Position numbers and translations under genes: made by a program
Shown here: positions 1 to 33,447 of the stretch, piece after piece
Layout: the number at the start of each line of letters is the position of its first letter
Numbering within the stretch: the stretch's first letter is position 1
The notes under the pieces: model-generated
The model's database searches: none
What the model was told of the DNA's origin: nothing
Seen by the model: the letters and a program-made list of their open reading frames with translations, nothing else
Source of the DNA: Thermoanaerobaculia bacterium
GTDB taxonomy: Bacteria; Acidobacteriota; Thermoanaerobaculia; Multivoradales; Multivoraceae
NCBI GenBank assembly: GCA_965232105.1
Contig: OZ246956.1
Coordinates: forward strand, 3,781,588-3,845,587
Direction: 5' to 3'
Length of the DNA: 64,000 nt

Positions 1-356
1 TCCGGAAGGGACGCGCACGAGGAAGGACCGGCCAGCCGCCGTGCAGCGCGGTGCGGCGTTGATTCTCTTGCGGTCTGGGCGGCCGGCGGTTCCGATCCGC
101 CTGCGTGTTCGCCCACCCGCTCTCGGCAAGACAGACTCTCTCGCGCGCCTTCCGCCGGAGGCCGTGCGCTTCACGATGAGCGTCGGCGACGAGGTCCATC
201 CATCAACGTTCGGCACCCACGGCAGCGAGCGCGAGAGGTCGCAGTCGGGATGCAAGATTCTGGAGCGGGCCTTGGGACTACCACCGGCCGATTGCCTGGA
301 TCCGTAGATGGCCGACTGGTAGGGTCCGACGTTGCTTGCAGGAGCCGCAGGGGAAG

Positions 357-605
357 ATGACGCGCGACGAAATCGAGGCCAAACTGAGGGACATCCTGGT
401 GGAGATGTACGAGCTCGAGCCGGGCCGGATCGCCCTTGACGCCCGCCTCTACGAGGATCTTGCCCTCGACAGCATCGACGCGGTGGATCTGATCGTCCGA
501 CTCAAGGAGTTCACTCAGGCCGACATCGCTCCGGAACGGGTCAAGGAGATTCGTACGGTCGAGGACGTGGTCGACCTCGTAGCCGAGTTGCTACAGGTCA
601 ATTGA
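357..605 (+). CDS. Acyl carrier protein (APE-cluster ACP). The ORF track starts at TTG 336; ATG 357 (MTRDEIEAKL) is the more likely start.
   Basis: Has the LALDSIDAVDLIV motif with the phosphopantetheine-attachment Ser in the DSID context. Size ~83 aa. Followed by FAS-like genes. Confidence 0.8.
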   Translation: MTRDEIEAKLRDILVEMYELEPGRIALDARLYEDLALDSIDAVDLIVRLKEFTQADIAPERVKEIRTVEDVVDLVAELLQVN

Positions 606-606
606 G

Positions 607-1191
607 GTGAGCCCTCTGGTCAGCGCAGTCGAACGCCTGGAGTCCGTCGAGAGCGCCCGGTTCGATGCTGGAGAACTTCTTGTCGTGCCGACCGAGGCTG
701 GTTGGGAGACCTTGGCGCACAAGGGCAAGAAGGCGCTGATTCGGGAACTGACCAACCTGGTTACGACCGCGGCGACCGCCGAACAGGCGCCGGGGCGATG
801 GCGGTTCGTGCGGCGTCTTCCCGCCACGGGAAGAGCCGGTCGCGATCGCCCCCTCCACCCGCGATGGGAGGAACTCGAGCGCACCGCCGTCAGGTGGCTC
901 GGCGAGGCTGCCGTGACGGCCGACCTGGCGGTCCTGGAGGGCCACTTTCCCAATGAGCCGATCGTTCCCGGCCTCGCCCAGTTGCTGTGGGCAGAGAAGC
1001 TCTCGCTCCGGGTCTTTGCGCGGCACACCGCGACCGCCGAGATCCGTAACCTGAAGTTCGCGCGGCTGATCGCGCCAGGCATCAGGCTTCGGGTCGCACT
1101 GGTCCACGAGCTCCACGCGCGCTCACGGGTCGCGTTCAGGTTCACCTCGGACGCCGGCACGCACAGCAGCGGCGTGCTCATCGGCGCGTAG
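607..1191 (+). CDS. FabA/FabZ-like hot-dog 3-hydroxyacyl-ACP dehydratase (APE cluster DH)
   Basis: LEGHFPNEPIVPGLAQLL matches the FabZ 'GHFP..P..PG' active-site region. GTG start overlaps the ACP stop. Confidence 0.55.
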   Translation: MSPLVSAVERLESVESARFDAGELLVVPTEAGWETLAHKGKKALIRELTNLVTTAATAEQAPGRWRFVRRLPATGRAGRDRPLHPRWEELERTAVRWLGEAAVTADLAVLEGHFPNEPIVPGLAQLLWAEKLSLRVFARHTATAEIRNLKFARLIAPGIRLRVALVHELHARSRVAFRFTSDAGTHSSGVLIGA

Positions 1192-1206
1192 CGCCGCGCG
1201 CGGTCC

Positions 1207-1659
1207 GTGTCAGATCGAGCCGCAACCGTCCCGGCGCCGAGCATCGAGGCGCTCCTGCCACATGCCGCACCGATGATCCTGATCGACTGCGCCGCGGCGC
1301 AAGGCTCCTCGGCGACCCGAAGCGTGGTCCGCATCGGCGAAGACTCGATGTTCTACGAGGCGCCGCACGGGGTTCCCGCCTACGTCGGTATCGAGTACAT
1401 CGCCCAGACCGTCGCGGCTCACGCCGGACTCCACGCCTTTCGGCGAGGGGAACCCGTGCGGGTCGGCTTCCTTCTTGGTACGCGGGAGTACAAGTGCGCC
1501 GAGACCTGGTTCCGTCTCGGCGCCCACCTGACCATCGACGTGTCTCCTGTCCTCGAAACGACCGATGTCTCCAAGTTCAGAGGCGTCATCACAGACCGGT
1601 TCAGGGGTAAACTGGCGGACTGCGCCGTTACCGTCTACCTGCGATCCGGAAGCGAGTGA
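1207..1659 (+). CDS. ApeP-like 3-hydroxyacyl-ACP dehydratase (hot-dog fold)
   Basis: N-terminal LLPHAAPMILID motif is typical of the FabA-like dehydratases found in aryl polyene clusters. Length ~150 aa. Confidence 0.6.
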   Translation: MSDRAATVPAPSIEALLPHAAPMILIDCAAAQGSSATRSVVRIGEDSMFYEAPHGVPAYVGIEYIAQTVAAHAGLHAFRRGEPVRVGFLLGTREYKCAETWFRLGAHLTIDVSPVLETTDVSKFRGVITDRFRGKLADCAVTVYLRSGSE

Positions 1660-1666
1660 ACACCTG

Positions 1667-2389
1667 ATGACCGGACCGCGCCGCGCGCTCGTGACCGGGG
1701 CGTCACGCGGCATAGGCCGCGCGGTCGCCCTGGCCTTGGCCGGGGACGGTTTCGACGTGGCCTGCAATGCCCGAGGCGACGTAGAGGCCATCGTGACCGA
1801 GATCCGCTCGCGAGGCGGTAGCGCCAGCGCGCTTCCCGGCGACGTCTCGGAGCGCGGCGCCATTCGTTCCGCCCTGGACCGGGACATGGCCGACCGGGGC
1901 GCGTTCTACGGCGTCGTCTGCAACGCGGGCACCCACGCCGACGCTGCGTTCCCCGCGCTGACGGAGGCGGAGTGGGACGATGTCCTGCGCACAAACCTGG
2001 ACTCTTTCTTCAACGTCGTTCAGCCGTGTGTGATGCCGATGATCCGCCTGCGCGACGGCGGCCGCATCGTGGCCATGTCGTCCATCTCCGGCATCGCCGG
2101 CAATCGCGGCCAGGTCAACTACAGCGCTGCCAAGGCGGGGCTGATCGGCGCCGTGAAGTCCCTGGCCGTCGAGCTCGGCAAACGGAAGATCACCGTGAAC
2201 TGCGTCGCTCCGGGTATCGTCGGGACCGACATGACCCAAAGCACCTCCGACGAGATCATCCAGCGGCTCGTGCCGCTGCGGCGGAAAGGAAGGCCCGAGG
2301 AGGTCGCCAGCCTTGTCCGGTATCTATTCTCCGACCTAGCCGCCTATGTGACCCGACAGGTCCTGTCGGTCAACGGGGGCATGATCTAG
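1667..2389 (+). CDS. fabG: 3-oxoacyl-ACP reductase FabG (SDR family)
   Basis: ALVTGASRGIGRAVALALA Rossmann motif, NAG motif, catalytic YSAAKAG. ~240 aa from ATG 1667. The longer 1565 ORF is an upstream frame extension. Confidence 0.85.
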   Translation: MTGPRRALVTGASRGIGRAVALALAGDGFDVACNARGDVEAIVTEIRSRGGSASALPGDVSERGAIRSALDRDMADRGAFYGVVCNAGTHADAAFPALTEAEWDDVLRTNLDSFFNVVQPCVMPMIRLRDGGRIVAMSSISGIAGNRGQVNYSAAKAGLIGAVKSLAVELGKRKITVNCVAPGIVGTDMTQSTSDEIIQRLVPLRRKGRPEEVASLVRYLFSDLAAYVTRQVLSVNGGMI

Positions 2390-2449
2390 CGGAGCCGACT
2401 CCGTGTTCCGCCACATCTCACATCTCTCTCACGCCCGGGCGCTTTCGGG

Positions 2450-3697
2450 ATGAGCAGGCGGGTCGTTGTGACCGGCGTCGCCGGCATTTCGCCCATCGGC
2501 ACGGATTGGCCTTCGGTCCGGTCCCGTCTGTTGGCGGGAGAGGGCGGCGTCGAACGGATGGACGAGTGGAGTCGCGTAAAGGGGTTGAGGTCCTGGCTGG
2601 GCGCTCCAGCCGAGTTCGAGACGCCCCTCCGCTGGCCGCGCAAAATGCGCCGGTCCATGGGCCGCGTGTCGGCCATGGCCGTCCGCGCGACCGAACTGGC
2701 CCTAGAGCAGGCGGGCCTGCGAGACGACCCTGTCCTTCGATCCGGTCGCGTCGGCGTGGCGTACGGATCCTCGATCGGATCCACTGACAGCCTGCGGGAG
2801 GTCGGCCGCTTTCTCGCGACCGGATCCACTGAGGGCGTCACCTCGAACGTCTACGTCAAGCTGATGCCGCATACGACCACGGCGGCAATCGGCATGTTCT
2901 TCGGCCTCACCGGCCGTCTCCTCCCCTCGTCCTCCGCCTGCACATCGGGGAGTCTGTCGCTCGGTATGGCCTACGAGTCGATCAAACACGGCTACCAGGA
3001 CGCGATGGTCGCCGGCGGCGCGGACGAACTCGACCTTCCGGCAGTAGCGACCTTCGATACGCTGTACGCCACGAGCCGCCGCAACCAGACGCCGTCGCGT
3101 ACGCCGAGACCTTTCGACTCTGACCGCGACGGCCTGGTGGTCGGAGAAGGCGCCGGCACGTTCGTGCTCGAAAGCCGGCGCCACGCTCTCGAACGCGGCG
3201 CGACGATCCTGGCCGAACTCGTCGGCTTCGGCGCCAACTCCGACGGCGCCCATCCAACCCAGCCCGCCCAACGAACCATGGCCGAAGCGATGCGTCTGGC
3301 TCTCGCCGACGCCGGTCTGGGCGCGGACCAGATCGCCTACGTGAACGCCCACGGCACCGCCACCGAACTGGGAGACATCGCGGAGAGCCGGGCCACCCTG
3401 GAGGTGTTCGGCCGTCCAGTACCGATCAGCTCGCTGAAGAGCTACATCGGTCACACCCTGGGCGCCTGTGGCAGTCTAGAGGCATGGATGAGCCTCGAGA
3501 TGCTCCGTGAGAGCTGGGCCGCTCCGACGATCAACCTGGAGAATCCCGATCCGCGCTGTGCCGCGCTCGGCTACGTCGTAGACGAGCCGATGCGCATCAA
3601 GGCGAACTACTTGATGACCAACAACTTCGCCTTCGGCGGCGTGAACACGTCGCTCGTGTTCAGGCTGCCCCCCCCAGGAAGGAACCACTCCTCGTGA
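2450..3697 (+). CDS. Beta-ketoacyl-ACP synthase (KAS I/II-like, APE cluster KS)
   Basis: Active-site Cys in ACTSGS, His motifs HGTAT and GHTLGACG, C-terminal NNFAFGGVN. Confidence 0.85.
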   Translation: MSRRVVVTGVAGISPIGTDWPSVRSRLLAGEGGVERMDEWSRVKGLRSWLGAPAEFETPLRWPRKMRRSMGRVSAMAVRATELALEQAGLRDDPVLRSGRVGVAYGSSIGSTDSLREVGRFLATGSTEGVTSNVYVKLMPHTTTAAIGMFFGLTGRLLPSSSACTSGSLSLGMAYESIKHGYQDAMVAGGADELDLPAVATFDTLYATSRRNQTPSRTPRPFDSDRDGLVVGEGAGTFVLESRRHALERGATILAELVGFGANSDGAHPTQPAQRTMAEAMRLALADAGLGADQIAYVNAHGTATELGDIAESRATLEVFGRPVPISSLKSYIGHTLGACGSLEAWMSLEMLRESWAAPTINLENPDPRCAALGYVVDEPMRIKANYLMTNNFAFGGVNTSLVFRLPPPGRNHSS

Positions 3698-3969
3698 ACC
3701 AGACGCCTGAGCAGAGCCGGATGGCCGTCCTCATCGTCGATGCGCTGAACCTGGAGGACATCGATCCTGCCGACATCGACCCGGACGAGTTGATGTTCGG
3801 CGACGAGGGTCTCGCTCTCGATTCCATCGACGCGCTGGAGATCGCCGTCGCGGTCGCGGAGGGTTTCGGGGTCCACTTCAGCGCCAAGGACGAAACGACG
3901 CGGGAAGCGTTCGCCACTCTCGGCAGCCTGACGGACTTCGTGATGAAGGAAGTAAGTGCGCGAACGTGA
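3694..3969 (+). CDS. Acyl carrier protein (second ACP of cluster)
   Basis: LALDSIDALEIAVAVAE motif. 91 aa. Start overlaps the KS stop. Confidence 0.8.
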   Translation: MNQTPEQSRMAVLIVDALNLEDIDPADIDPDELMFGDEGLALDSIDALEIAVAVAEGFGVHFSAKDETTREAFATLGSLTDFVMKEVSART

Positions 3970-5311
3970 GGCGCCGTCGACGACCCCTCTGATCGACCGG
4001 TCGGAAGAGGCGGCGCCGTGGGCGTACGCTGGCGACCGCCCGGTCGCCGTCTCGCAGTTCGCCCGGGACGCGCTGCTGTGCGCCGACAGTCTGCCCAACC
4101 GCCCCTGGCTGATCAACATCTGCTCCGACCGGTACCTCTTCGGGGTTGCGTTCTTCGCCGCGCTCCTCAGGGGAAGCGTCAACCTTCTGCCGTCTCAACG
4201 AAGTTCAGACGCCCTGAACGCGCTGCGCCGACGGTACCCGGACAGCGCGATCGTCGCCGACGACAAGGCGGTCGTCCCCGGGCCCTCGCCCGGCACAGCG
4301 GAACCGTCCGCCATTCTGCCCGCCATCGACACGGCCCAGCTCGCCGCGATCGTCTTCACCTCCGGCAGCACCGGCGCGCCGAGTCCGCATCCGAAGACCT
4401 GGGGGCTGCTCAGCGATTTCCGCGCCATCCACTGGCGTCGCCTGACCCGAGCTCTGGAGGAAACCGGGACTTCTACCGGCGAGCTGGCGATCGTGTCGAC
4501 CGTTCCGCCGTGGCACCTGTACGGGCTCGAGTGGACGCTGCTCCTGCCGAGCATCGCTCCCGTCTCGGTCCACTGCGAACGTGCCTTCTTTCCCAAGGAC
4601 GTGGTCGACACGCTCGGCTCCTCAAGCGCCCCCACCGTCCTGGTGACGACACCGACGCACCTGCGGGCGTTGCTCAAGGCGCCTCCTCCCGCTCGCTCGG
4701 TGAGCGTGACGATCTGCGCAACCGCCCCTCTCGATGCGAACCTCGCAGCCCAGGCGGAACGACACCTCGGCGCGCCGATTCTGGAACTCTACGGTTGCAG
4801 CGAAGTGGGAACGTTGGCCTCCCGCCGGCCTGCCGAAGGTCGTGGGTGGAGCTTCTTCGACTACTTCCAACTGGCTTTCTCCGAGAGCGGTCTGACGGTA
4901 AGCGCGCCCCGCCTGGAGGCGCCCGTCGACCTCGCGGACCGCTTCGAGCGCCTCGCGGATGGACGGTTCGAGTTTCTTGGACGGTCCACGGACATCGTGA
5001 AGATCGCCGGAAAGCGAGAGTCTCTCGCGAACCTGAATACTCTCCTTCTGGAACTCCCTGGAGTCCGGGACGGCGTGATCTTCCAGCCCCGGCGCGACGG
5101 CAGGCCTTCGGAACGGCTCGCGGCCCTCGTGGTAGCGCCGGACCTCGAGCCGCGAGACATCCGAAAGGCGATGGCGAATCGGCTGGATCCAGCCTTCGTG
5201 CCGCGACCGATCCGGATCGTGGATGCGGTTCCGCGCAATCGCACGGGCAAGACACCTCTCGGCAGCCTGACAAGCTTGCTGGGCGGTCGCGCCGTCGAGT
5301 TCAATGACTGA
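3956..5311 (+). CDS. AMP-dependent synthetase/ligase (aryl-acid:ACP ligase, ApeH/XanA2-like)
   Basis: FTSGSTGAPSPHPK matches the adenylate-forming core T-S-G-S-T-G-x-P-K, with a downstream YGCSE motif. ~450 aa. Confidence 0.75.
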   Translation: MREREAPSTTPLIDRSEEAAPWAYAGDRPVAVSQFARDALLCADSLPNRPWLINICSDRYLFGVAFFAALLRGSVNLLPSQRSSDALNALRRRYPDSAIVADDKAVVPGPSPGTAEPSAILPAIDTAQLAAIVFTSGSTGAPSPHPKTWGLLSDFRAIHWRRLTRALEETGTSTGELAIVSTVPPWHLYGLEWTLLLPSIAPVSVHCERAFFPKDVVDTLGSSSAPTVLVTTPTHLRALLKAPPPARSVSVTICATAPLDANLAAQAERHLGAPILELYGCSEVGTLASRRPAEGRGWSFFDYFQLAFSESGLTVSAPRLEAPVDLADRFERLADGRFEFLGRSTDIVKIAGKRESLANLNTLLLELPGVRDGVIFQPRRDGRPSERLAALVVAPDLEPRDIRKAMANRLDPAFVPRPIRIVDAVPRNRTGKTPLGSLTSLLGGRAVEFND

Positions 5312-6245
5312 TGCCGTCCACTGGCAGGAGCGATCCGAAGCAGGAAACCGGCTCGCCATCCGCACCACGGCGTGGATAGCTCGAAGGCTGGGTCGCAAGG
5401 CCGTCCATCTCCTGCTCTACCCGACGGTCCTGTACTTCTACCTGGCGCGGGCGCCGGAACGCAGAGCCTCCCGAGACTTCCTGAGACGAGCCCTGAAGCG
5501 GCCCGTACGGGAGACCGACGTGCTACGCCACTTTCTCAGTTTCGCTCGGGTCGCGGCGGACCGCTTCTTCGCTCTCAGCCGCAGTCCCGAAGCGAGAGAA
5601 GTCAGGTTCGTACGGGACGAGGGAGTCCAACAGGTGGTGGAAGAGAACAGCGCGGGTATCTTCGTGACCGCGCATTTCGGTTCGTTCGACGCGCCCAGAG
5701 TCGTCGACGCGGACCGCCGGGAGTTCGGGATTCGCATCGTCCTGGACAAGGGCGTCAACGCTCACTTCGTCCGGGTCATGGAGGAGATCGATCCAGCGAT
5801 GGCGGAACGGATAATCGACTCGGAGCAAAGCGCGGCGTCTCTGGGAATCTCGATCGCGGAAGCGCTCCGTGAAAACGAGTGGGTCGGGTTCATGGCGGAT
5901 CGCTGTCGACCGGGAGACCGGACCCTGTCGCTTCCCTTCCTCGGTGCCCCGGCGACTTTCCCGCTCGGCCCGTACCTCGTTGCCTGCGCCTTCAAGGCGC
6001 CGATCATCTGCGTGTTCTGCCGTCTGGACCCGCCCGGCTATGAGGTGCACTGCGAGGTTCTGTGGACCGGCGGCCAGGTGCCTCGATCCCAACGAGCGAG
6101 CACGGTCGCCGCGCTGGCTCGGGGATACGCGGAGAGACTGGAGCGCCATGTCCGCGCGGCGCCGCTTTCCTGGTTCAACTTCTTTGACTTCTGGGCGCAG
6201 CATGCGACCGAGGCGCAACCGCCCGGCAGTGGCAGGGCGCGCTGA
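5304..6245 (+). CDS. LpxL/HtrB-like lysophospholipid (lauroyl) acyltransferase
   Basis: ~313 aa. Predicted N-terminal membrane segment. Family assignment is by APE-cluster position plus general similarity. The HX4D region was not verified by eye. Confidence 0.55.
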   Translation: MTDAVHWQERSEAGNRLAIRTTAWIARRLGRKAVHLLLYPTVLYFYLARAPERRASRDFLRRALKRPVRETDVLRHFLSFARVAADRFFALSRSPEAREVRFVRDEGVQQVVEENSAGIFVTAHFGSFDAPRVVDADRREFGIRIVLDKGVNAHFVRVMEEIDPAMAERIIDSEQSAASLGISIAEALRENEWVGFMADRCRPGDRTLSLPFLGAPATFPLGPYLVACAFKAPIICVFCRLDPPGYEVHCEVLWTGGQVPRSQRASTVAALARGYAERLERHVRAAPLSWFNFFDFWAQHATEAQPPGSGRAR

Positions 6246-6900
6246 CGCGGCCCGCTTCGGGCGGGCGGCCGCCGCCGTTCTTGCCCTCCTGGCCGCAGTC
6301 CCGGTCGCCGCCGACGACGCTGCCTGGGAGCGGCTCGCGGGCCTGGAGTTCCCGCGGGAACAGCGCGTCACCTTCGTTGAGCGACACCTGAATCGACTGC
6401 TGCGCGCGCCGGCTGAACAGCGCGGCGAACTCTGGCTGACAAGCGACGGCGTCGCGGTCATGCGGGTGCACGCCCCACGCCTCGAGGAACGAAGAATCGA
6501 GGGCGACCGGCTCGTCCTGCGGCGCCCGCACCGGCGGCGAAGCGGTCCCGAGGAGCGGGACGCCGCACTCGACCAGGGCACTGAGCGGCGCCGCAAACTG
6601 AACCGCGAGCGGGGCGCTCACCTGGTGCTGGCGATCATCCTCGACGTGCTGTCCGGCGACGTTACGGAACTTCGGCAGACCTTCGACTCCACGTTGACCT
6701 CCTTCGGTGACTCTTCGGAAGGCCATGACTGGGAGATCGAGCTGGTTCCGCGGGACCCCCGATTGCGCGGCGAACTCGTCTCCGTGCGTCTTCGAGGCAC
6801 AGGCCGGCGCCTCGCCTTCCTCCACCTGAGCCGCGGCGGCCGGAACTGGCGGGAGATCCGGCTTCTCTCCCCATCCCGAAGCGACCAGAGCATCAACTGA
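6212..6900 (+). CDS. Secreted protein, probable LolA-like outer-membrane lipoprotein carrier-like protein of APE clusters
   Basis: ATG 6212 gives an Arg-rich n-region followed by AAAVLALLAAVPVAADD, a signal-peptide-like segment. Assigned mainly by synteny between the acyltransferase and the MMPL exporter. Confidence 0.4.
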
Positions 6901-6902
6901 TC

Positions 6903-9134
6903 TTGACTCTCGCCCAACGCACCGCCGTCCTCCTGATCCTTGCCGCGATGGTCGCCGGCGCAGCGACCCTCGATCTCTCGATCGGTTACGACCTGGCCTC
7001 CTTCCTGCCCAGGCCCACTACTCCCGGCCAGCGCCTGCTCGTGGAACGCCTGGGGCAGGTGTCCGGCGCCGACGCGATCTACGTGGTTCTGCCGGAGGCG
7101 TCGGAGTCAAGGGCCGAAGCCGTAGCGGAAGACCTGCGAGCGATGCCGAGGGCTCGCCGGGTTCTTCCAGAGGCGGAAATGCTCGACCCGGACTCGATCC
7201 CACTCCCGATCTGGCGTAAACGGTTGCTGCTCCACGACCTGCCCGCGGGAGAAGACGGCTGGCGCGAGGTCCTGGAAGCCCGGCTAGCGGACTCCACGCT
7301 GGCCGACTCGGACGAGGCCCTGGAACTGATCGCCGCTGACCCGTTGCTGGCGAGCGTCTCCGCGCTCGAACGGATGGCCTCCGCACCGCGCATGTTCGGA
7401 GACGGCGACGCACGGTACCTTCTGATTCTCCCGGCGGCAGCCATGTTCGACATCGGCGCGCATGCCGAGTTGATCACGGACGTGAGACGGACTCTCACCG
7501 GCCATGGTTTCGACGATGCCCGGCTCTACGGCACCGGCGTCTACAGCGTCGATCTGCAGGCCAGGACGCAGCAGGAAGCGAAGCTGTTCAGTGCGCTGGC
7601 CGCGGTCGCGCTGGCGCTCCTGCTGTTGTGGCACTTCCGCTCGCCCACCGCGGTCGTCGCCGCAGGAGCGCCCATGCTCGCCGGCGCGGCAGCGGGGCTC
7701 GGAGTCGCGGCGCTCCTCTACGACGAGGTTCACGGCATCGCTCTAGCCTTCGGCTTCACCCTTCTGGGCGTCGCGGTGGACTACCCCCTGCACGCGCTCA
7801 GCCACCGGTCGAACCCGGGCGCCGTCTGGGCAACCCTTCGCATGGGGGTGGGCAGCACGCTGATCGCCTACTCCGTGTTCCTCGTGGGCGGTGCCTCGGG
7901 TCTTCAGCAGCTCGGCGTGTTCGCTCTTTCGGGCATCGCCGCGGCCGCGCTGGCGACCGCCTGGTTGACGGCAGGAAGCGCGGGCGCGGCGTTACCAGCG
8001 ACGGCGGCGAAGCCAGCGCCCGCCTGCGGTACGGCACTGCGCCCCTGGCCGTGGATCGTCGTGGCCGCGGCTGCTGCCTTCCCGCTGACCACGCGCGGCC
8101 CGTTCCTGGACGACCTCGACGCGCTGACACCCGTGCCCAGAGAGACGCTGGCGGCCGACGCGGAAGTTCGCAGGCAAGTGGGGGCGAGCGACATGCGCCA
8201 TGTGGCGGCAAGCCGCGCCGCCAATCTCGAGGACGCCCTTCGACTCACGGAAGCCCTCGCCGCGCGTCTGGACGAGGCAGTACTGGCGGGCGAAGTTGAA
8301 GCCCACCGAAGCATCTCACCGCTGCTCCCCAGCCGATCGCGCCAGCGTGAGCGAATGGCCGAACTACGCCAGTTTCTTGTCCAGGGCGGCGTGTACTCGG
8401 GCGCCTTCGCTCACGCCGCAGCCGACCTGTCTTTCGCCGGGGATGCATTCCGACCCTTCCACGACGATGCGGTCGCCATCGAAGGAACTACGAACTGGCT
8501 CGTGATCGACGATCTGCGGGACCACCCGGACCTCGCAGCGCTGACCGGCCTTCACCTGCTGGAAACGACCGTTGGATGGACCAGCCTCACATTCCTGAGC
8601 GGCATGGCTGACACAGGTGCAGTGGCCACGCGGCTCGACGGCCTGGACGGGGTTCAGTTCGTCGACCTCGTCGAAGCTTCCAGCACTCTGGTGACGGACC
8701 TCCGACGCAGAATCGCTGTTCTGCTCCTGGCCGCGCTCCTGGCCGCCGGCGTGGTGCTTTCGCTGCTCACCCGAGACTTCCGCCGTTCGGTCTGGCTGCT
8801 CGGAAACGTCGCCGCCGCACTGGCGGTCGCGGCAAGTCTCGGGACATGGCTGCGGGGCGGCCTCTCGCCCTTCGACCTGATGGCGCTGGCGCTGGTGGCG
8901 GGGCTCGGCCTGGACTACGGCCTGTTTCACAGCCGAACGCCGGCCGACGCGGCGGACGCCAGCGAAACGGAAGCCGCTGTGCTGATCTGCGCACTTTCGA
9001 GTTTCGTCGTGTTCGCGCTCCTCGCCTTCTCCAGCATTCCGGTTCTCGCCGGAATCGGTCAGACTGTGGCAAGTGGAGTGGCCGCAGCGTACCTGCTGAC
9101 GCACTTCGGCCGCTATCCGAAACCTGGAACCTGA
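6903..9134 (+). CDS. MMPL/RND-superfamily exporter (APE pigment exporter-like)
   Basis: 743 aa polytopic membrane protein with two clusters of hydrophobic helices separated by soluble domains. Typical ApeM position. Confidence 0.6.
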   Translation: MTLAQRTAVLLILAAMVAGAATLDLSIGYDLASFLPRPTTPGQRLLVERLGQVSGADAIYVVLPEASESRAEAVAEDLRAMPRARRVLPEAEMLDPDSIPLPIWRKRLLLHDLPAGEDGWREVLEARLADSTLADSDEALELIAADPLLASVSALERMASAPRMFGDGDARYLLILPAAAMFDIGAHAELITDVRRTLTGHGFDDARLYGTGVYSVDLQARTQQEAKLFSALAAVALALLLLWHFRSPTAVVAAGAPMLAGAAAGLGVAALLYDEVHGIALAFGFTLLGVAVDYPLHALSHRSNPGAVWATLRMGVGSTLIAYSVFLVGGASGLQQLGVFALSGIAAAALATAWLTAGSAGAALPATAAKPAPACGTALRPWPWIVVAAAAAFPLTTRGPFLDDLDALTPVPRETLAADAEVRRQVGASDMRHVAASRAANLEDALRLTEALAARLDEAVLAGEVEAHRSISPLLPSRSRQRERMAELRQFLVQGGVYSGAFAHAAADLSFAGDAFRPFHDDAVAIEGTTNWLVIDDLRDHPDLAALTGLHLLETTVGWTSLTFLSGMADTGAVATRLDGLDGVQFVDLVEASSTLVTDLRRRIAVLLLAALLAAGVVLSLLTRDFRRSVWLLGNVAAALAVAASLGTWLRGGLSPFDLMALALVAGLGLDYGLFHSRTPADAADASETEAAVLICALSSFVVFALLAFSSIPVLAGIGQTVASGVAAAYLLTHFGRYPKPGT

Positions 9135-10663
9135 CCGAGCGACCGCCGCGCCAGGCCGCCTTCGTCATCTCCCAGGATGCACCGGATGCCGCTCGCCGCC
9201 GCCTTTAGGCGCTCGAGGTTACGCGTCAGCCGCGTTTGGTCACCGCCCGGGTCGCCTTCCAGCAGGTCGCCCTGCAGCTCGTGGAACAGAGGCACGGCGT
9301 GGTGGTCGAAAAAGCGGCCCTCGCCGCCAACCCGGCCGGCGCTCGCCGCGCGGCGGCGGAACAACTTCTGCACGCCTGAGTGCAGGGCCGCGGCCCGTAG
9401 CAACAGGTTCTCGTTGCGCCGCATGAACTCCAGATCGGTGAACCTGCCCGAGAAGAACAGCTTGGCCGGAATGGACCAGTAGAAGGCGTAGTCCCAAAGC
9501 GTCTTCGCGACGATCAGCGTACGGTCTCCGAAGCCCGGGTACTGTCCGCGGTACAGGAGCATCGTGTTACCGAAGAAGGCTTGGTAGTTCTGCTGGTAGT
9601 TCTGCACCCGCTCAGCCGGAAATCCGCGCGCGATCAAGTCGACGGCATAGATATTGGCCAGGGCGATGAAGTCGGCGCCCGGCGAGTAGAACGGGTCGGC
9701 AAACAGACTGGCATCGCCGGTCGCCGCCCAACCATCCTCCGAGAACACCTCGGAGTTGCCGACCGCGTAGTTGCTCAGGAAGGAGTGATCCAGGGCCTCC
9801 CGCCCCGCAAGTTCCGCCGCCACCAGCGGGTGCCGGCGCTCCAGCCAGCGGATCAGATCGGTACGACTGCGGACCTCCTCGAGGGCGACTCGCGCAGGGT
9901 CAAACACCAGACCCACACTGGTCATGCCGGACGCGAGCGGAATCAGCCAAAGCCAGTAGCCCGGGCCGGTGAAGTGGATCGTGCTGGCGCGACGCGGCAG
10001 TTCCCCGGAACACCGTGACAGCCAATCGCTGTCAGCGCTAAGGGATTCGACGTCGACCGGCCCCCGGATCCGGAACCAGACGGCATGCTGGCGGTGACGA
10101 GCCGAACGGGCGGTGCCCCGCAAGCGCCGCAGGAAACCGCGGCGACCGCTGGCGTCGATCAGGTATCTGCAACGAAGCGTCTTCTCCCTTCCCTCCCCCG
10201 CATCCCGAAGAACGACCCGATGCTCCCCACGTTCGATCTCAACCGACCGTACGGCTGTTCCCTCGCGAAGTTCTCCGACGTCCTTCCAGGTCCGGGCCAG
10301 GTGATTCTCGAAGCGGCCCCGGTCAAGCTGGTAGGTGGGGATCGGGAGCGCCGCGCTGGGCCCAATCTCGTCGTAGGCTGCCAGATCGCGCTCGATGGGG
10401 GTCTCGCCGCAGCAGAAAAGGCGCAAGCCGAACTTCCGAAGTTGTTCCCGCTCCAGATTCTCCTTCAGACCGAGCCCGTTGGCCAGGTAGTGAGAGGCAA
10501 TCTCGACCGTGGATTCGCCAACCTTGTGCGCCGCCTCCGGCACCGGGAAGCGCCTGCGCTCGACCACGGCAATGTCGAGCTCGGGCAGTCGTTGGCGGAG
10601 ATGGCGGGCGAGGGTCAGGCCCGCAAGCCCTCCACCGACGATACACACGTCACGGCGTTGCAC
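9113..10663 (-). CDS. Flavin-dependent halogenase (tryptophan-halogenase family)
   Basis: GxGxxG FAD motif (CIVGGGLAGLTLARHL) and the diagnostic halogenase motif WxWxIP (GPGYWLWLIPLASG). The ORF-track N-terminal ~68 aa overlaps the CLF and looks non-coding. Proposed GTG start at 10663, 4 nt after the CLF stop. Confidence 0.75.
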   Translation of the reverse strand: MQRRDVCIVGGGLAGLTLARHLRQRLPELDIAVVERRRFPVPEAAHKVGESTVEIASHYLANGLGLKENLEREQLRKFGLRLFCCGETPIERDLAAYDEIGPSAALPIPTYQLDRGRFENHLARTWKDVGELREGTAVRSVEIERGEHRVVLRDAGEGREKTLRCRYLIDASGRRGFLRRLRGTARSARHRQHAVWFRIRGPVDVESLSADSDWLSRCSGELPRRASTIHFTGPGYWLWLIPLASGMTSVGLVFDPARVALEEVRSRTDLIRWLERRHPLVAAELAGREALDHSFLSNYAVGNSEVFSEDGWAATGDASLFADPFYSPGADFIALANIYAVDLIARGFPAERVQNYQQNYQAFFGNTMLLYRGQYPGFGDRTLIVAKTLWDYAFYWSIPAKLFFSGRFTDLEFMRRNENLLLRAAALHSGVQKLFRRRAASAGRVGGEGRFFDHHAVPLFHELQGDLLEGDPGGDQTRLTRNLERLKAAASGIRCILGDDEGGLARRSLGQVPGFG

Positions 10664-10667
10664 GGAA

Positions 10668-11516
10668 TCAGGCGCGCCAGCCACGACCGCCCTCAAGGCG
10701 CAGCTCGACGCCGCAACGCGGCCCGGCTGCAAAGCAGAGCAACCCGTGCCGCGACGGATCCCCTTCCGGGGCTGCAAGGCGATCCGCGAGCGTGAGCGCG
10801 CATCCCATCGGATTCGCCTGCCCGAGCCAATCCAGGCCGGCTGGAGGCGGGGTCGTCCGGAGCCCACCCGTTCTGAACCGGATCTCCGCCCGCAGACAAG
10901 GACGGTCCCGGGCCACGACGCCCGCCGGTTCCAGAACGAAGGCTGCCCCGAGCGTCTGCCGAACGTCCGCTACCGCCGTAAGCGGCGGCTTCGTCGCGAT
11001 GTCGCAGGCAACGAAGAGCACAGGGCCGCGAGCCGCGACCGACTGGCTGGCGGTCTCCAGCAATCCGGCCCCGAAGCTCTCCAGGAAGGCGCCGACGAAC
11101 GTGCTCGGCGAACGATTGCGGGTGCTGATCGTCCAGTAGCCCGACGCCGCGTTGTGAACCGAGTTGTGGAACCTGGTCGGCGACAGCACCTTCGCAGGCT
11201 GCGCCAGCCGCCGGCACATGTACTCCGTAACCGCCGTGTCGCCGAGCGCGGACGCGAAGACCGACGGCACGGCGTCCTTCGGGACACCGGCAACCTCGCA
11301 GGCCTGGTGCGCGACCTCGACGCCCAGGCTGATCATCAAACCCGCCCTGCGCCGCTCCCGCGCCGGAAGCGAGGCGGGTCTCGGCACCTGGAACTCACTG
11401 GCGTCCAGATCCGCGAAACCGAGGCTTCTTGCCGCGCCGAACTCCGCGAAGCTGGTCAACCCCCGCGTCCAGAGGCCGACGCCGGTAATCGCCACTCGAA
11501 GCACCGGCCGAGTCAC
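10668..11516 (-). CDS. KS-beta / chain-length-factor-like partner of KS (lacks full KS length)
   Basis: 282 aa KS-N-like sequence (VAITGVGLWTRG...). Overlaps the upstream KS by 4 nt. Confidence 0.6.
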   Translation of the reverse strand: MTRPVLRVAITGVGLWTRGLTSFAEFGAARSLGFADLDASEFQVPRPASLPARERRRAGLMISLGVEVAHQACEVAGVPKDAVPSVFASALGDTAVTEYMCRRLAQPAKVLSPTRFHNSVHNAASGYWTISTRNRSPSTFVGAFLESFGAGLLETASQSVAARGPVLFVACDIATKPPLTAVADVRQTLGAAFVLEPAGVVARDRPCLRAEIRFRTGGLRTTPPPAGLDWLGQANPMGCALTLADRLAAPEGDPSRHGLLCFAAGPRCGVELRLEGGRGWRA

Positions 11517-12739
11517 CGGCCGAACGCCACCGAACAGTTGGCGCCGCCGAACCCGAAGGAGTTCGTGAGAGCTACATCGACGGAGCGCCTCACGCTCTCG
11601 AGCAGCAAGTTGAACGGCGCATCGGGAATCGTCGTGTTCCTGGTACCCGGCACGAAGCCGGTGGCGAGAACCTCAAGGCACAACACTGCCTCCACGATGC
11701 CGCTTGCCCCGAGCGCGTGACCCGTCCAGCCCTTCGTGGCACTGGCCAGAACGTCGCCTTCCATCATCGCCGCGCACACCTTTCCTTCGACCTCGTCATT
11801 GCCCTGGGTGCCGGTGCCGTGGAGATTCAGGTAGTCGACTTCGCTCATGGAGATACCGGCGTCGGCCAGCGCCCGCTCCATCGCAAGCCGGGCGCCCAGA
11901 CCTTCCGGGTGGCTGCTGGACATGTGGTACGCGTCGCAGCTCTCGCCCACCCCAAGCAACCGCAGATCCCCCGGCGCCGCTTCCCGGGACAACAGGACGA
12001 ACCCCGCAGCCTCGCCGAGACTGATGCCCATCCGATCTTCCGAGAAGGGTCGGCAGGGCTCGGGCGAAACGAGCTGCAGCGAATGGAAGCCGTGGATCAC
12101 GCTGAGGCAGAGGCTGTCGGCGCCTCCAACCACGACCGCATCGACGAGGTCCTGCTCCAGCCAGCGCTTCGCGGTGGCGAACACCTTGGCGCTGGAGGCG
12201 CAGGCGGCGCTCACCGTGATCCTCGGGCCCTCGATTCCCAACCGCTCGGCCGCGAAGGCGGTCGGGGCATGGGGACTATGCACCCCGGGCTGGCGGAACC
12301 GGGAAGGGAAACTGCCGTCGTCTTCGAGTTGCCGATACGCCTCCTCGGTCCGGTCGATAGCTGAAGTGCTTGTGCCCACGACAAGCCCGAGCCGGTCGTG
12401 CTCCACCTGGTCCCGCACTTCAGCGACAGCGTCGACGAAACCGTCCTGCTGCAGCCCGAGCTCGACGAGGCGCGTGTTGCGGCTCCATTGACTCGGCGGC
12501 ACTTCGACCGACTCGGGCAGATCGACCCGGCCGAGAAAGCACGGAACGTCACTGCCCCGCCACTCGCGGTCATCGAGGCCAGTTCGGTTCGTTCGCAGAG
12601 ATGTCCGCAACGCCCCGACACCCGCTCCCAACGCCGAAGTGAGGGTGTATGCCCTCACCCACACAGTCACAAGGCGACCTCCAATGTGACGTTGCGGGAC
12701 AGGGCGCGTTGCGCTCCATACAGCCACGGCCCAAACCAC
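11513..12739 (-). CDS. Beta-ketoacyl synthase (KS-alpha of convergent KS/CLF pair)
   Basis: VSAACASS active-site Cys, HGTGT and GHALGASG His motifs. 408 aa. Confidence 0.8.
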   Translation of the reverse strand: MVWAVAVWSATRPVPQRHIGGRLVTVWVRAYTLTSALGAGVGALRTSLRTNRTGLDDREWRGSDVPCFLGRVDLPESVEVPPSQWSRNTRLVELGLQQDGFVDAVAEVRDQVEHDRLGLVVGTSTSAIDRTEEAYRQLEDDGSFPSRFRQPGVHSPHAPTAFAAERLGIEGPRITVSAACASSAKVFATAKRWLEQDLVDAVVVGGADSLCLSVIHGFHSLQLVSPEPCRPFSEDRMGISLGEAAGFVLLSREAAPGDLRLLGVGESCDAYHMSSSHPEGLGARLAMERALADAGISMSEVDYLNLHGTGTQGNDEVEGKVCAAMMEGDVLASATKGWTGHALGASGIVEAVLCLEVLATGFVPGTRNTTIPDAPFNLLLESVRRSVDVALTNSFGFGGANCSVAFGR

Positions 12740-12835
12740 TGCTCTCCTGGACCTGGGCTCATGATCGGCGATATCCTAGCGGCCGTTCCGCGCAACAGAC
12801 AAAACCCCGAGAAACGCACCGAATCGGTCACTCAA

Positions 12836-13291
12836 ATGCGCTCAACCTCACTCGTCCCCCTGTGCTCGCTCTTTCTGGTGGTGCTGACCGGGTGCGCCAC
12901 CCCCATCAACCACATGCTCGGCTCTCCGCTGCCTCCAGACCAGAACGCCGACGAGATGACCTACTACGTCGTGCGCCACGACAGGGACGGACGCGACCTC
13001 GCCTCCAGCATCGCTGCTGCGCTCCGCCAACGCGGACTGGAGACATCCTCCGGACGCTCCGGCGCTACGCCCGAAGGAACCGACAGGCTGGTCACTTACG
13101 TCGACAACTGGAGTTGGGACGTGCGATTGTTCCTGCACACTCTGCGCATTGAAGTCCGGGACGCGGCCACAGAAGCGATTCTCGCCTGGGGAGAATCCGC
13201 TCAGTACACGTGGGCCGCGATGGGCAAGACGTTCTCCGACGTCATCGACCGTGCGCTGGCGGGCCTGTTCGGAGAGCCTGCACCCTGGTGA
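12836..13291 (+). CDS. Hypothetical lipoprotein
   Basis: ATG 12836. Signal peptide with lipobox LTGC (MRSTSLVPLCSLFLVVLTGC). Longer ORF 12398.. runs antisense into the KS gene. Confidence 0.5.
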   Translation: MRSTSLVPLCSLFLVVLTGCATPINHMLGSPLPPDQNADEMTYYVVRHDRDGRDLASSIAAALRQRGLETSSGRSGATPEGTDRLVTYVDNWSWDVRLFLHTLRIEVRDAATEAILAWGESAQYTWAAMGKTFSDVIDRALAGLFGEPAPW

Positions 13292-13380
13292 GGTCCCGAG
13301 GCTTGGCGGCGCTCCCCCGCACAACGCCCGTAAACGCCGTCACGGCGCTGGCGCTCCTTGCCTATCCTCTCCTGGTCTAC

Positions 13381-13914
13381 ATGCTGCTGGATCGCGTATC
13401 GCCTGCCTTGATGATTGTCGGCCTGGGCATCCTTGGCGCTGCGCGAATCGCGACCGGGAGCTCGATCCACCGGAAGCACCGGACTCTCCTTCTGGGCATG
13501 CTGGTCCTGTTCTGTACGGTGGCCTATCTGGATGCCCGCTGGGAGTGGGTGAAGCTCTACCCCGTTCTGGTCAATGTTGCGGGGGCTGCCTGGTTTGCGT
13601 GGACCCTGATTCGCCCGCCCTCGGCGGCGGAGCGTTTCGCGCGGCTTGCGAATCCCAGGGAGAGGTTCGACTGGCGCAAGTCCTCATACACGAAGCGCGT
13701 CACGCAAGTCTGGGTGGCCTTCTTCCTTCTCAACGGCGGCGCCGCAACGTACACGGCCCTTGCGGCGTCCACCGGTGTCTGGGCGATCTACAACGGACTG
13801 ATCAGCTACCTGCTGATCGGATTGCTGCTTGGCGGGGAGTACCTGTTCCGCCTCCGGTACCGGAAACGCCACTTCGCGGGCATGGAGGCATGCCGGAGCG
13901 CTACCATCTCCTGA
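13381..13914 (+). CDS. Hypothetical integral membrane protein (APE-cluster associated)
   Basis: Four or more hydrophobic segments. Start uncertain; ATG 13381 chosen. Confidence 0.4.
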   Translation: MLLDRVSPALMIVGLGILGAARIATGSSIHRKHRTLLLGMLVLFCTVAYLDARWEWVKLYPVLVNVAGAAWFAWTLIRPPSAAERFARLANPRERFDWRKSSYTKRVTQVWVAFFLLNGGAATYTALAASTGVWAIYNGLISYLLIGLLLGGEYLFRLRYRKRHFAGMEACRSATIS

Positions 13915-14639
13915 TTCCACACTACCGCCACGTCGACCAGCTCGCGGGGTTCCTCCCCCAGCTAGCGACAGCCGGCCTGCCGGCGCTCGTCGTCGACGAC
14001 GGCAGCGATTCCAAGACCCGCCAACGGCTGCGCCGGTTGATCGCGAGTCACTCTTGGGCGTCACTGCTCCAACGGAACCGCAACGGTGGCAAGGGCGCGG
14101 CGATGATCACCGGCATGAAGTACCTGTACGCTCAGGGTGTCACGCACGTCATCTCGGTGGATGCAGACGGCCAACACGACCCAGCGGAGATCACGCGACT
14201 TCGACTGGCCTCGCAGCGACACCCGGCGCGAGTGGTTTCCGGCAAGCCGGTCTTCGGAGACGACATGCCGAAGGTTCGCCTGCACGGCCGGAAGCTCACG
14301 AACGTGTTGGCTCGGTTGGCGGCGGGCGACGGCCAGGTCGAGGACGCGATGTGCGGGCTTCGGCTCTACCCACTGAACTCCGTGTTGCCTCTATTCGCGA
14401 CTCTCGGAAAGCGAGTCCGCATGGAGTTCGATGTCGAGATCCTCGTCAGGGCCTGCTGGGCCGGTCTTGAACTGGAGTTCATACCGACACGAGTCGTGTA
14501 TCCGCCGGACGGCCGTTCTCACTTCCGGCTGTTCGCGGACAACGCCAGGTTCTGTCGCATGCACACGGTTCTGATCTTGCAGGCACTTGGACGGCTGTTA
14601 ACTCCCGGGCATCGCTCCCGTCAACACCACGAGCCATGA
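13890..14639 (+). CDS. Glycosyltransferase family 2
   Basis: LVVDDGSDSKTRQ (DXD-type motif) and ISVDADGQHDP. GGAGG Shine-Dalgarno immediately upstream of ATG 13890. Confidence 0.75.
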   Translation: MPERYHLLIPHYRHVDQLAGFLPQLATAGLPALVVDDGSDSKTRQRLRRLIASHSWASLLQRNRNGGKGAAMITGMKYLYAQGVTHVISVDADGQHDPAEITRLRLASQRHPARVVSGKPVFGDDMPKVRLHGRKLTNVLARLAAGDGQVEDAMCGLRLYPLNSVLPLFATLGKRVRMEFDVEILVRACWAGLELEFIPTRVVYPPDGRSHFRLFADNARFCRMHTVLILQALGRLLTPGHRSRQHHEP

Positions 14640-15106
14640 ACTCGACTCTCACCCAAGGCCGTCGCGCTTTATGGAAAAAACGCTGGCCGGACCATCCGGC
14701 CCTGCGGGCGCGGGCTACCTTCAAAGTGCCCTTTCAGGACGCGGACCCGACCGGCGTCGTCTGGCATGGAAACTACTTTCGGTACTACGAAACGGCACGC
14801 TCAGCGCTACTCGACAAGCTCGGCTTCAGCTATCGCCACCTCGGCGCCAGGGGCCAACTCTGGCCCATCGTCGACACCCGGGTGCGTTTTCGCAGGAGCA
14901 TTCCTTACGGAGATCCAATCACTGTGTCAGCGCAACTCGTGGAGTGGGAGTTTCGGCTGAAGATCTACTACGAGCTCCGCAAGTTCGACGGAGAACTCGC
15001 GAATGAGGCCTTCACCGTGCAAGTGCCCGTTGATGCCGATTCGGAGAAGCTCATCGTTGGAATGCCCCCCTACCTTCGCGACAGAATCGCTGAGATAGTC
15101 GGATGA
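14636..15106 (+). CDS. Hot-dog acyl-CoA/ACP thioesterase (YbgC/4HBT family)
   Basis: FKVPFQDADPTGVVWHGNYFRYYETAR matches the 4HBT-family thioesterase N-terminus. Start overlaps the GT2 stop. Confidence 0.7.
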   Translation: MNSTLTQGRRALWKKRWPDHPALRARATFKVPFQDADPTGVVWHGNYFRYYETARSALLDKLGFSYRHLGARGQLWPIVDTRVRFRRSIPYGDPITVSAQLVEWEFRLKIYYELRKFDGELANEAFTVQVPVDADSEKLIVGMPPYLRDRIAEIVG

Positions 15107-16082: not shown

Positions 16083-16106
16083 TCGGGACAGAAGCGACAG
16101 TCCGGC

Positions 16107-20386: not shown

Positions 20387-20854
20387 TCAGTCGACTTCGA
20401 AAACAGCGTCGATCTCGACCGGGACGTTGAACGGCAGCTCGTTCGCGCCGACCGCGAAGCGGGCGTGCCGCCCCCTGTCGCCGAAGACCTCCACCATCAG
20501 GTCCGAGGCTCCGTTGATCACCGCCGGATGGTTGTCGAAGTCGTCGCTGCAGTTGACGAAGCCGCCGAGCTTCACGCAACGGACGACGCGTTCCAGGTCG
20601 CCATCGCAGGCTGCCGCGACGACGGCCACGATGTTCACCCCGACCAGGCGGGCGGCCTCCCGCGCCTCCTCCAGCGAGTAGTCGACACCCACCTTGCCCC
20701 GGTACGCCAACCTCCCGTCCTTCACCGGCACCTGGCCGGAAACGAAGACGAGCGACCCGGTGCGCACGAAAGGCACGTAGTTCGCGGCGGGCGCCGCGGG
20801 TTCGGGGAGTTCCAGGCCGAGCGCTTCGAGACGCTCCTTGACTGTCTTCGTCAT
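20387..20854 (-). CDS. RidA/YjgF family reactive-intermediate deaminase
   Basis: ~155 aa. YjgF-like pattern (GSLVFVSGQVP...; GVNIVAVVAAAC). Confidence 0.7.
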   Translation of the reverse strand: MTKTVKERLEALGLELPEPAAPAANYVPFVRTGSLVFVSGQVPVKDGRLAYRGKVGVDYSLEEAREAARLVGVNIVAVVAAACDGDLERVVRCVKLGGFVNCSDDFDNHPAVINGASDLMVEVFGDRGRHARFAVGANELPFNVPVEIDAVFEVD

Positions 20855-26056: not shown

Positions 26057-26244
26057 CGTGAGGCTCCACGGAGTGGACTAACTCCGATTAGTTTACACCA
26101 GAGAACTCCGCTCACATGGCCGGCGCAGCTACCTGCGGCGAAGTTGACGAGTCGACACTCCGAGGCGGTGTACGATCGCCGCCCTCGCGTCCTGGCCCGA
26201 TGCTGCGAGGACGAAGAGTGCCACCGAAAGCCACTGGAACCGCC

Positions 26245-26949: not shown

Positions 26950-27073
26950 GGTCGTCCGCCTCGGCATCGTCAGGTGCGACCCGCTTACCGGCCGGCTATC
27001 CGCACGGTGCGGCGGCGACCGTCGCCGCGTGGCGGGTAGCCTTCCGTCTCCAAAGCTTCCTTCCCGCTCGATA

Positions 27074-29507: not shown

Positions 29508-29566
29508 ACCGGGACTGATACCGTTCGCTATCCGCCGTTGGCGCGTTCTTTCCCGCCGTCATAGCC

Positions 29567-33436: not shown

Positions 33437-33447
33437 GAGGATGTCGG

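Follow-up and report, generated by a model that had tools for sequence, protein, structure and literature searches.

A probable xanthomonadin-type aryl-polyene gene cluster with a candidate halogenase, and without its starter gene xanB2, in an uncultured Acidobacteriota lineage

Xanthomonadin-type pigments are reported to be protective against light and peroxide (PMC3691225). A halogenase gene flanks the ORF16/17 pair, which encodes a chain-length factor (CLF) and a ketosynthase (KS), in Xanthomonas and Variovorax, but not in Lysobacter enzymogenes or Xylella (Wang et al. 2013, PMC3691225); the Xanthomonas pigments are brominated and the Lysobacter pigment is not (PMC3691225). Deleting the xanB2 homologue of L. 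enzymogenes removes about 90% of the pigment and leaves about 10%, and feeding 3-hydroxybenzoic acid (3-HBA) restores it fully (PMC3691225). In antiSMASH surveys, arylpolyene clusters are already on record for Acidobacteria associated with animals and for metagenome-assembled genomes (MAGs) from sponges. Here we describe a locus in a 64,000-nucleotide stretch, hereafter the window, of a Thermoanaerobaculia genome (phylum Acidobacteriota; contig OZ246956.1, positions 3,781,588 to 3,845,587) that appears to join a xanthomonadin-type aryl-polyene (APE) cluster and a flavin-dependent halogenase gene to the loss of the starter gene xanB2. A halogenase beside KS and CLF genes was already known from Xanthomonas and Variovorax; what is newly found here is the strain-specific xanB2 deletion.

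We put the probability that the locus is a xanthomonadin-type APE cluster, of the kind that would yield a yellow pigment bound to the membrane, with 19 genes between window positions -424 and 16082, at roughly 80%. The analysis covered 71.5 kb, namely the 64-kb window and 7.5 kb upstream on its own contig (locus L011; ENA ERZ21861969, 4,969,223 bp, retrieved via the KS protein), and used open reading frame (ORF) listing, codon-position G+C, and Pfam and NCBIfam profile scans. When the 18 proteins of the Escherichia coli CFT073 ape cluster (from RefSeq) were compared with the window proteins by BLASTP, counterparts at 24–56% identity were found for ApeA, C, D, E, F, G, H, I, J, K, M, O, P, Q, and R. 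A first-pass annotation of the window, made from the sequence alone, had proposed an APE cluster at 336-15106. Every gene it listed is present in the order and orientation given, and the ape matches, APE-specific Pfam families, and matches to Protein Data Bank (PDB) entries 6qsp, 6qsr, and 7f28 all agree with the APE assignment; its borders were too narrow, the cluster being longer by four genes. The cluster forms three transcription units: a plus-strand block that ends with a resistance-nodulation-division (RND) exporter gene, a convergent minus-strand KS-CLF-halogenase unit, and a second plus-strand block. Upstream of its first gene, which encodes a PlsC/ApeD-like protein, lie genes for RNase III, an Asp/Asn-tRNA synthetase, and an IS3 transposase, so the left border is fixed, and the suggestion that an ammonia-lyase or methyltransferase gene might lie upstream does not hold. 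The 3' flank consists of mutL, recO, and mgtE. What is established at this locus is the identity of the genes, the conservation of their catalytic motifs, the synteny shared with characterised clusters, and the action of purifying selection.

Most of the chain-building genes stand near the start of the first plus-strand block. An ApeF-like acyl carrier protein (ACP; 336..605, plus strand; public gene call from 357) is recognised by PP-binding at 7.8e-11, NF003757 at 4e-28, and 56% identity to ApeF, and carries the serine motif LDSID. Two hot-dog dehydratases follow on the same strand, one ApeI-like (607..1191; PF22818 3.6e-7, PDB 6qsr_A and 3esi, 33% to ApeI at 8e-6) and one ApeP-like (1207..1659; PF22817 2.4e-9, PDB 6qsr_B 1.6e-8, 30% to ApeP at 9e-14). 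The ApeI-like protein has an N-terminal extension of about 95 residues that neither E. coli ApeI (117 aa) nor the Pseudomonadales homologues possess; all 194 aa are conserved in the three Ca. Multivorans loci (L001-L003, below). Next come a 3-ketoacyl-ACP reductase of the FabG2/ApeQ type (1667..2389, plus; adh_short_C2 9e-52, TIGR01831 FabG2 at 343.9 bits, above the cutoff, 54% to ApeQ) and an ApeR-like KS (2450..3697, plus; both N- and C-terminal Pfam KS domains, NF006587 617 bits, 55.5% to ApeR), which keeps the Cys-His-His triad (ACTSG, AH, and HGT in the alignment). A second, ApeE-like carrier protein (3694..3969, plus; PP-binding 1e-4, NF006617 1e-22, 46% to ApeE) also has an intact serine motif, as has the first. 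The aryl-acid AMP-ligase, of the ApeH/XanA2 type (3956..5311, plus; AMP-binding 2e-17 and AMP-binding_C, 27% to ApeH at 2e-31), retains TSGSTG, YGCSE, GRSTDIVKIAGKR, and the A10 lysine, and we infer that it loads the starter onto an ACP.

The remaining two lie on the minus strand. The CLF-like KS partner, of the ApeC or Lysobacter ORF16 type (10668..11516; PF13723, Ketoacyl-synt_2, 9e-22; PDB 7f28_A and 6qsp_B; 39% to ApeC at 6e-6), lacks the active-site cysteine, its SVHNAASG aligning with SVHNSSVG of ApeC. Its partner is an ApeO-like KS (11513..12670; KS domains, NF006618 431 bits, PDB 6qsp_A 2e-67 and also 7f28_B, 39% to ApeO) in which the ACASS cysteine and both histidines are present. We take 6qsp and 6qsr to be APE synthase components of Xenorhabdus doucetiae, and 7f28 presumably represents the counterpart in Acinetobacter baumannii. 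The FabG, KS, ACP, and FabZ-like parts do resemble fab genes, as they would if the locus served ordinary type II fatty-acid synthesis or made another lipid of similar origin, such as a flexirubin-type or dialkylresorcinol hybrid. Such an origin is very improbable, given the one-to-one correspondence to ape and the presence of a cysteine-less CLF, of the ApeI and ApeP families, of an aryl AMP-ligase, and of a LolA/RND module; moreover, enoyl reductase, FabD, and FabH are absent, and the flexirubin marks tyrosine ammonia-lyase and DarA/DarB were not found in the window or the 7.5 kb upstream, nor was any other ammonia-lyase gene.

A scan of species-representative genomes gave ten related loci, and a further genome (L016) provided one more. 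Three (L001-L003) come from Ca. Multivorans or 'Holophagales' MAGs (Acidobacteriota, Thermoanaerobaculia), with halogenases 83-88% identical to that of the window; seven (L004-L010) come from Pseudomonadales or Pseudomonadota MAGs (54-57%); and the L016 halogenase is 63% identical. The cluster is syntenic in the three Ca. Multivorans loci, and mutL and recO adjoin it in L001 and L003. The 92% identity of mutL in L001 places the source genome within the Ca. Multivorans genus-level group. All 11 related loci share the KS-CLF-halogenase operon, and the convergent RND gene follows it in every locus long enough to tell (L006 stops just past the halogenase), with the other cluster genes rearranged in the gammaproteobacterial loci and in L016. 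A XanB2-type chorismatase (FkbO_Hyg5-like_N) is encoded in six of the seven gammaproteobacterial loci (L004, L005, L007-L010), in L016, L001, and L003, and in the Lysobacter xanthus locus used for comparison (L014, 21 kb, cut at the halogenase end); the xanB2 position falls outside the sequence of L006, which ends earlier, and of L002, which ends at the thioesterase gene. The L009 copy is labelled 'pteridine-dependent deoxygenase like protein' by NCBI, the old annotation of Xanthomonas XanB2. L008 and L010 also have a second halogenase-like gene, of a kind annotated XanB1 in Xanthomonas (PMC3838355). The likeness to xanthomonadin clusters that had been proposed at first pass is thus borne out by the XanB2 genes of related clusters, the XanB1-kind gene of some, and a halogenase 40% identical to that of L. 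xanthus.

Within the conserved operon the genes are tightly packed. The stop codon of the minus-strand KS gene overlaps the CLF start by 4 nt. The first-pass annotation had the halogenase beginning 4 nt past the CLF stop in the same transcript, which is true for the GTG at 10663; an alternative GTG at 10684, used by the public gene call (523 aa), is preceded by a better-placed GAGGG Shine-Dalgarno sequence 5 nt upstream and would give a 17-nt overlap with the CLF gene. Whichever start applies, halogenase and CLF are in one operon. The halogenase gene and the RND gene share 22 nt at their 3' ends (window 9113-9134). This convergent overlap measures 13-16 nt in the sister genomes, and in Pseudomonadales loci there is a gap of 9-120 nt instead.

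The last gene of this operon (9113..10663 or ..10684, minus strand) encodes a protein of 516 or 523 aa that matches PF04820 (Trp_halogenase) at 8e-17. It carries the two motifs noted at first pass, GxGxxG (GGGLAG, residues 10-15) and WxWxIP (WLWLIP, residues 237-242), and its PDB sequence matches are CmlS, CndH, 3nix (an uncharacterised Cytophaga flavoprotein), Bmp2, and PltA. In an alignment of 32 homologues (43-88% identity), K77, W237, W239, I241, and P242 are invariant, the GDAxxFxDPxxSPG segment is invariant or nearly so, and the GxGxxG glycines are conserved in at least 90%. K77 is the lysine of an LRKFG segment and aligns with a lysine of CmlS that we take to be K71. The AlphaFold model is of high confidence (predicted local distance difference test score, pLDDT, 91.6; predicted template modelling score, pTM, 0.92). 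Among its 45 best Foldseek matches in the PDB (E 1e-23 to 2e-17), 39 chains are named flavin-dependent halogenases (CtcP, PltM, CmlS, PltA, ChlB4, CndH, Bmp2, Mpy16, MalA', RadH, and FasV), and the other six belong to 3nix; monooxygenases enter the list only from rank 46. With a dN/dS (ratio of nonsynonymous to synonymous substitution rates) of 0.16, the gene is under purifying selection, as are mutL and recO.

Motifs, invariant residues, and predicted fold make halogenase the best-supported function of this flavoenzyme. It could instead be a hydroxylase or an inactive homologue, the aryl polyene then being non-halogenated as in L. enzymogenes. Such a reading would fit the identity of just 16-21% to halogenases of known structure, the absence of an NCBIfam equivalog match (the best, CmlS, reaches 68.6 bits where the cutoff is 900), and the uncharacterised status of the closely matching 3nix. 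To our knowledge, no halogenase from a xanthomonadin cluster has been characterised biochemically, and none surfaced in literature searches that were aimed at other questions. A 40%-identical homologue also sits in an unrelated type I polyketide synthase (PKS) context on a Janthinobacterium plasmid. We nonetheless consider a non-halogenating enzyme improbable: WxWxIP and the lysine aligned with the CmlS residue do not vary across the family, every characterised protein among the 45 best structural matches is a halogenase, and Xanthomonas, with the equivalent gene, makes brominated pigment, whereas that of L. enzymogenes, without it, is non-brominated (PMC3691225).

The Janthinobacterium lividum homologue lies at 213068-214666 of plasmid NZ_CP139977.1 (L012), beside genes for the type I PKS, an Asp/Asn beta-hydroxylase, and a phosphopantetheinyl transferase. 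Because of this context, the halogenase clade is not confined to APE clusters. A plasmid-borne APE parallel was considered and rejected, as the plasmid search returned this homologue alone.

What sets the window apart from its sister loci is the right end of the cluster. In both sisters whose sequence reaches that far, xanB2 is intact between the ApeA-like gene and mutL (L003 3979-4926; L001 4358-5290; tblastn), and XanB2 has no tblastn match in the window or the 7.5 kb upstream. The blastn break points and junction sequences instead mark a deletion scar of 24 nt (16083..16106) between the stop codons of the ApeA-like gene and mutL: window positions 16090 and 16109 correspond to L003 positions 4962 and 3703, so that about 1.25 kb of L003 stands against 18 unaligned window bases. 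We conclude from this comparison that xanB2 is lost from this genome. The first-pass remark that the starter might be made elsewhere came nearer to the truth than its upstream alternative; in the sisters the starter gene stands at the right cluster edge, from which this genome has deleted it. The sister intervals that match the scar are 3704-4961 in L003 and 4119-5375 in L001. Across genomes the cluster thus ends in a full ApeA-like gene and xanB2 (L003), a truncated ApeA-like gene and xanB2 (L001), or a full ApeA-like gene without xanB2 (window).

The 4,969,223-bp contig contributed no XanB2 homologue to the best 120 matches to L001 XanB2, which reach down to 37% identity, and the one sequence cluster able to hide a further copy held none from this contig on inspection. 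In the same homologue search, almost all other contigs with a close halogenase homologue appeared to carry XanB2. The genome therefore probably has no second xanB2 copy; hydroxybenzoate may still come from a chorismatase of very divergent sequence or from a lyase of the UbiC type. Among the genes called by codon-position G+C at 16-63 kb, Pfam scans revealed neither a chorismatase nor a chorismate lyase, and likewise no ammonia-lyase, S-adenosylmethionine (SAM) methyltransferase, or flavin reductase. A stand-alone RidA/YjgF-family protein of 155 aa (20387-20854), 4 kb from the cluster, belongs to the same superfamily as the chorismatase C-domain. It was rejected as a chorismatase, having no FkbO/Hyg5 N-domain.

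With xanB2 lost, and with the L. enzymogenes mutant in its homologue losing about 90% of its pigment, the pathway here either needs hydroxybenzoate from an outside or alternative source or is silent. One possibility, to which we give a low probability, is that the cluster is a recently inactivated relic, in which the loss of xanB2 ended the starter supply and stopped pigment production before decay became visible. The clean deletion of a gene that is intact at the same place in L001 and L003, the lack of XanB2 among the best matches from a 4.97-Mb contig when nearly all other contigs with a close halogenase have one, and the variability of the right end in the genus, with the ApeA-like gene truncated in L001, would all fit inactivation, as would the pigment loss in L. 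enzymogenes (PMC3691225). On the other side, all 19 remaining genes are intact with their catalytic residues conserved. All cluster genes have pairwise dN/dS values of 0.06-0.36, close to those of mutL and recO, though a pairwise measure cannot detect recent relaxation of selection. Another route to 4-hydroxybenzoate, for example through a UbiC-type lyase, is possible, 71.5 kb of the genome having been examined. Finally, the L. enzymogenes mutant keeps about 10% of its pigment and is rescued by 3-HBA (PMC3691225), so xanB2 loss alone is not silencing.

Another possibility, equally tentative, is that this strain is a natural xanB2-null with an otherwise intact, selected pathway and would depend entirely, for its halogenated aryl polyene, on 3- or 4-hydroxybenzoate that neighbours in its community release, either XanB2-bearing relatives or gammaproteobacterial symbionts. 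It would be the natural counterpart of the rescue of the Lysobacter xanB2-homologue mutant by 3-hydroxybenzoate (PMC3691225). If true, the starter would be a shared public good in a host-associated consortium. As all other cluster genes are intact and conserved, we slightly favour dependency over decay, on data that cannot separate the two; the strain-specific loss of the starter gene offers a concrete test of metabolic dependency.

If the pathway does run, the AMP-ligase would adenylate a hydroxybenzoate and load it onto a carrier protein, and the ApeO-like KS with its cysteine-less CLF, aided by the ApeR-like KS, would extend this starter with malonyl units. After each extension the FabG-type reductase and the ApeI- and ApeP-like dehydratases would act to give a conjugated polyene. 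The halogenase, co-transcribed and probably translationally coupled with the KS and CLF, would chlorinate or brominate the phenolic head group, perhaps on a substrate still bound to its carrier. Thioesterase, two acyltransferases, and glycosyltransferase would then join the polyene acid to an anchor made of lipid or glycolipid, and the ApeG-like, RND, LolA-like, and ApeA-like proteins would carry the product to the outer membrane. Without xanB2, all of this would depend on hydroxybenzoate made by another enzyme or taken from outside the cell. We infer from gene content the chemistry, including halogenation and glycosylation or acylation, when and where the halogen is added, and how the product would reach the outer membrane. 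The conserved KS-CLF-halogenase operon provides a defined candidate and a testable idea about halogenation timing, and our findings leave the understanding of the pathway itself unchanged.

Several points weigh against this picture of a halogenated, exported aryl polyene. No product was observed. Sequence does not show which halide is used, where it is added, or in which form the substrate is halogenated, and the structural neighbours of the halogenase include enzymes acting on free substrates (PltM, CtcP) as well as on carrier-bound ones (PltA, Bmp2, CndH). Neither a flavin reductase nor a phosphopantetheinyl transferase was found in the 71.5 kb, nor any methyltransferase or enzyme that would form the starter, and tblastn gave no match to ApeN (DUF3261) or ApeB across the window and all related loci. 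The LolA and RND assignments combine weak Pfam scores with synteny, and the xanB2 deletion leaves the cluster possibly silent in this strain.

The genes for attachment and export surround those for chain building. The first cluster gene encodes the PlsC/ApeD-like lysophospholipid acyltransferase (full gene -424..307, plus strand, of which 1..307 lies in the window; PF01553, 37% to ApeD at 1e-34); it occupies 7127-7858 of L011, window bases 2-304 match residues 143-243, and the window ORF at 41-307 is its C-terminus. Downstream of the AMP-ligase lies an LpxL-like acyltransferase of the lipid-A type (5304..6245, plus; PF03279, Lip_A, 2.8e-11; 28% to ApeJ at 1e-38), which corresponds to the C-terminal half of E. 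coli ApeJ and is 37% identical to its L. xanthus homologue. The LolA-like periplasmic carrier (6202..6900, plus) takes the ApeL position with a LolA_3 match at 1.2e-4, just below the Pfam cutoff. It shows no BLASTP match to E. coli ApeL, is 28% identical to the product of the LolA_3 gene of the L. xanthus cluster, and stands between acyltransferase and RND genes in all loci. The ApeM-like RND/MMPL exporter (6903..9134, plus; MMPL weak, HAE3 4e-8, 24% to ApeM at 2e-14) aligns with the MMPL protein of L. xanthus across 764 aa at 34% identity.

A small lipoprotein of 151 aa, with an LTGC lipobox and a weak Sbal_3080-family match (3e-9, below the cutoff), is encoded (12836..13291, plus) in the divergent promoter region that separates the KS operon from the ApeG-like gene. 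It is complete in this genome only, L001-L003 matching just the C-terminal 20-42 codons, and its role in the cluster is uncertain. The second plus-strand block continues with the ApeG-like integral membrane protein (13303..13914; 38% to ApeG at 1.6e-24), found in all related loci, and a family-2 glycosyltransferase (GT2; 13890..14639; PF00535 1e-11, 42% to ApeJ at 3e-61) that corresponds to the N-terminal half of E. coli ApeJ. An ApeK-like thioesterase of the 4HBT fold follows (14636..15106, plus; 4HBT_2 1.3e-15, 41% to ApeK at 1e-36). The last cluster gene (15177..16082, plus) encodes a secreted protein of 301 aa with a signal peptide, 37% identical to ApeA over 113 aa at 1.4e-17; an ApeA-like N-terminal domain is joined to a C-terminal domain of about 170 aa without known function. 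Homologues occur in L003, L008, L009, and L010.

Third-position G+C is 0.78-0.83 in the cluster genes and 0.84-0.95 in the flanking genes, in a host genome of 67% G+C. This lower value, the nearby IS3 element, and the gammaproteobacterial affinities of the cluster together suggest an old horizontal acquisition. Beyond the genus, the nearest relatives with a name come from Pseudomonadales MAGs, a hint of transfer from one phylum to another, and the halogenase-bearing xanthomonadin-type cluster is extended here to an uncultured Acidobacteriota lineage. The IS3-family transposase pair (HTH_Tnp_1 and rve) is at 2710-4193 of L011, that is, 3.4-4.8 kb before the window start and about 3 kb from the left border of the cluster.

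Elsewhere in the window is a coenzyme F420 operon (26116-32101) for an F420_oxidored-family protein, CofE, CofD, CofC, and a fused CofG/CofH (FbiC, 844 aa); oxidoreductases of the luciferase-like type, which may depend on F420, are encoded at 20871-21791 and 38678-39718. An island of low third-position G+C (32108-38985) encodes a toxin-antitoxin pair of the Phd/YefM-PIN kind, a protein with an ASCH domain, a 752-aa GNAT-domain protein, and a 1045-aa restriction-modification fusion of the MmeI type (type IIL). A PaaK-like AMP-ligase gene (40629-41933) comes just before genes for a dual OB-fold (DuOB) protein and two DUF488 proteins (41962-43802). Na+-translocating NADH:quinone oxidoreductase is a common trait of marine bacteria, and an operon for it (53805-61002) encodes NqrA, NqrB, an Rnf-Nqr-family membrane subunit, and NqrF, with ApbE; an insertion sequence with DDE_Tnp_1_4 follows at 61270-62703.

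Compared with known systems, the cluster matches that of E. coli gene by gene, the ApeL-like protein being placed by Pfam and position. It differs in lacking the ApeB methyltransferase and ApeN (DUF3261), in having ApeJ split into two distant genes and a halogenase added, and in forming three transcription units rather than one. The APE synthase entries 6qsp, 6qsr, and 7f28 are the solved structures nearest to the CLF, its KS partner, and the two dehydratases. The halogenase shares GxGxxG, WxWxIP, the lysine, the GDAxxFxDP flavin adenine dinucleotide (FAD) motif, and the fold with CmlS, CndH, PltA, Bmp2, Mpy16, PltM, and CtcP, but is only 16-21% identical to them and differs in a helical C-terminal region of about 170 residues. 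Like the xanthomonadin (pig) clusters, the locus pairs a type II PKS, built on a KS and a cysteine-less CLF-like partner, with an adjoining halogenase gene (PMC3691225); unlike them, it has lost xanB2, has another gene order, and belongs to an acidobacterial rather than a gammaproteobacterial host. The L. xanthus locus, which carries XanB2 and the classical pig gene set along with its 40%-identical halogenase, shares LipA-type and PlsC-type acyltransferases, LolA_3, the MMPL exporter, ApeI/ApeP dehydratases, and a ketoreductase with the window, whereas the ApeR-like KS and the ApeG-, ApeK-, and ApeA-like proteins have no match in its 21 kb.

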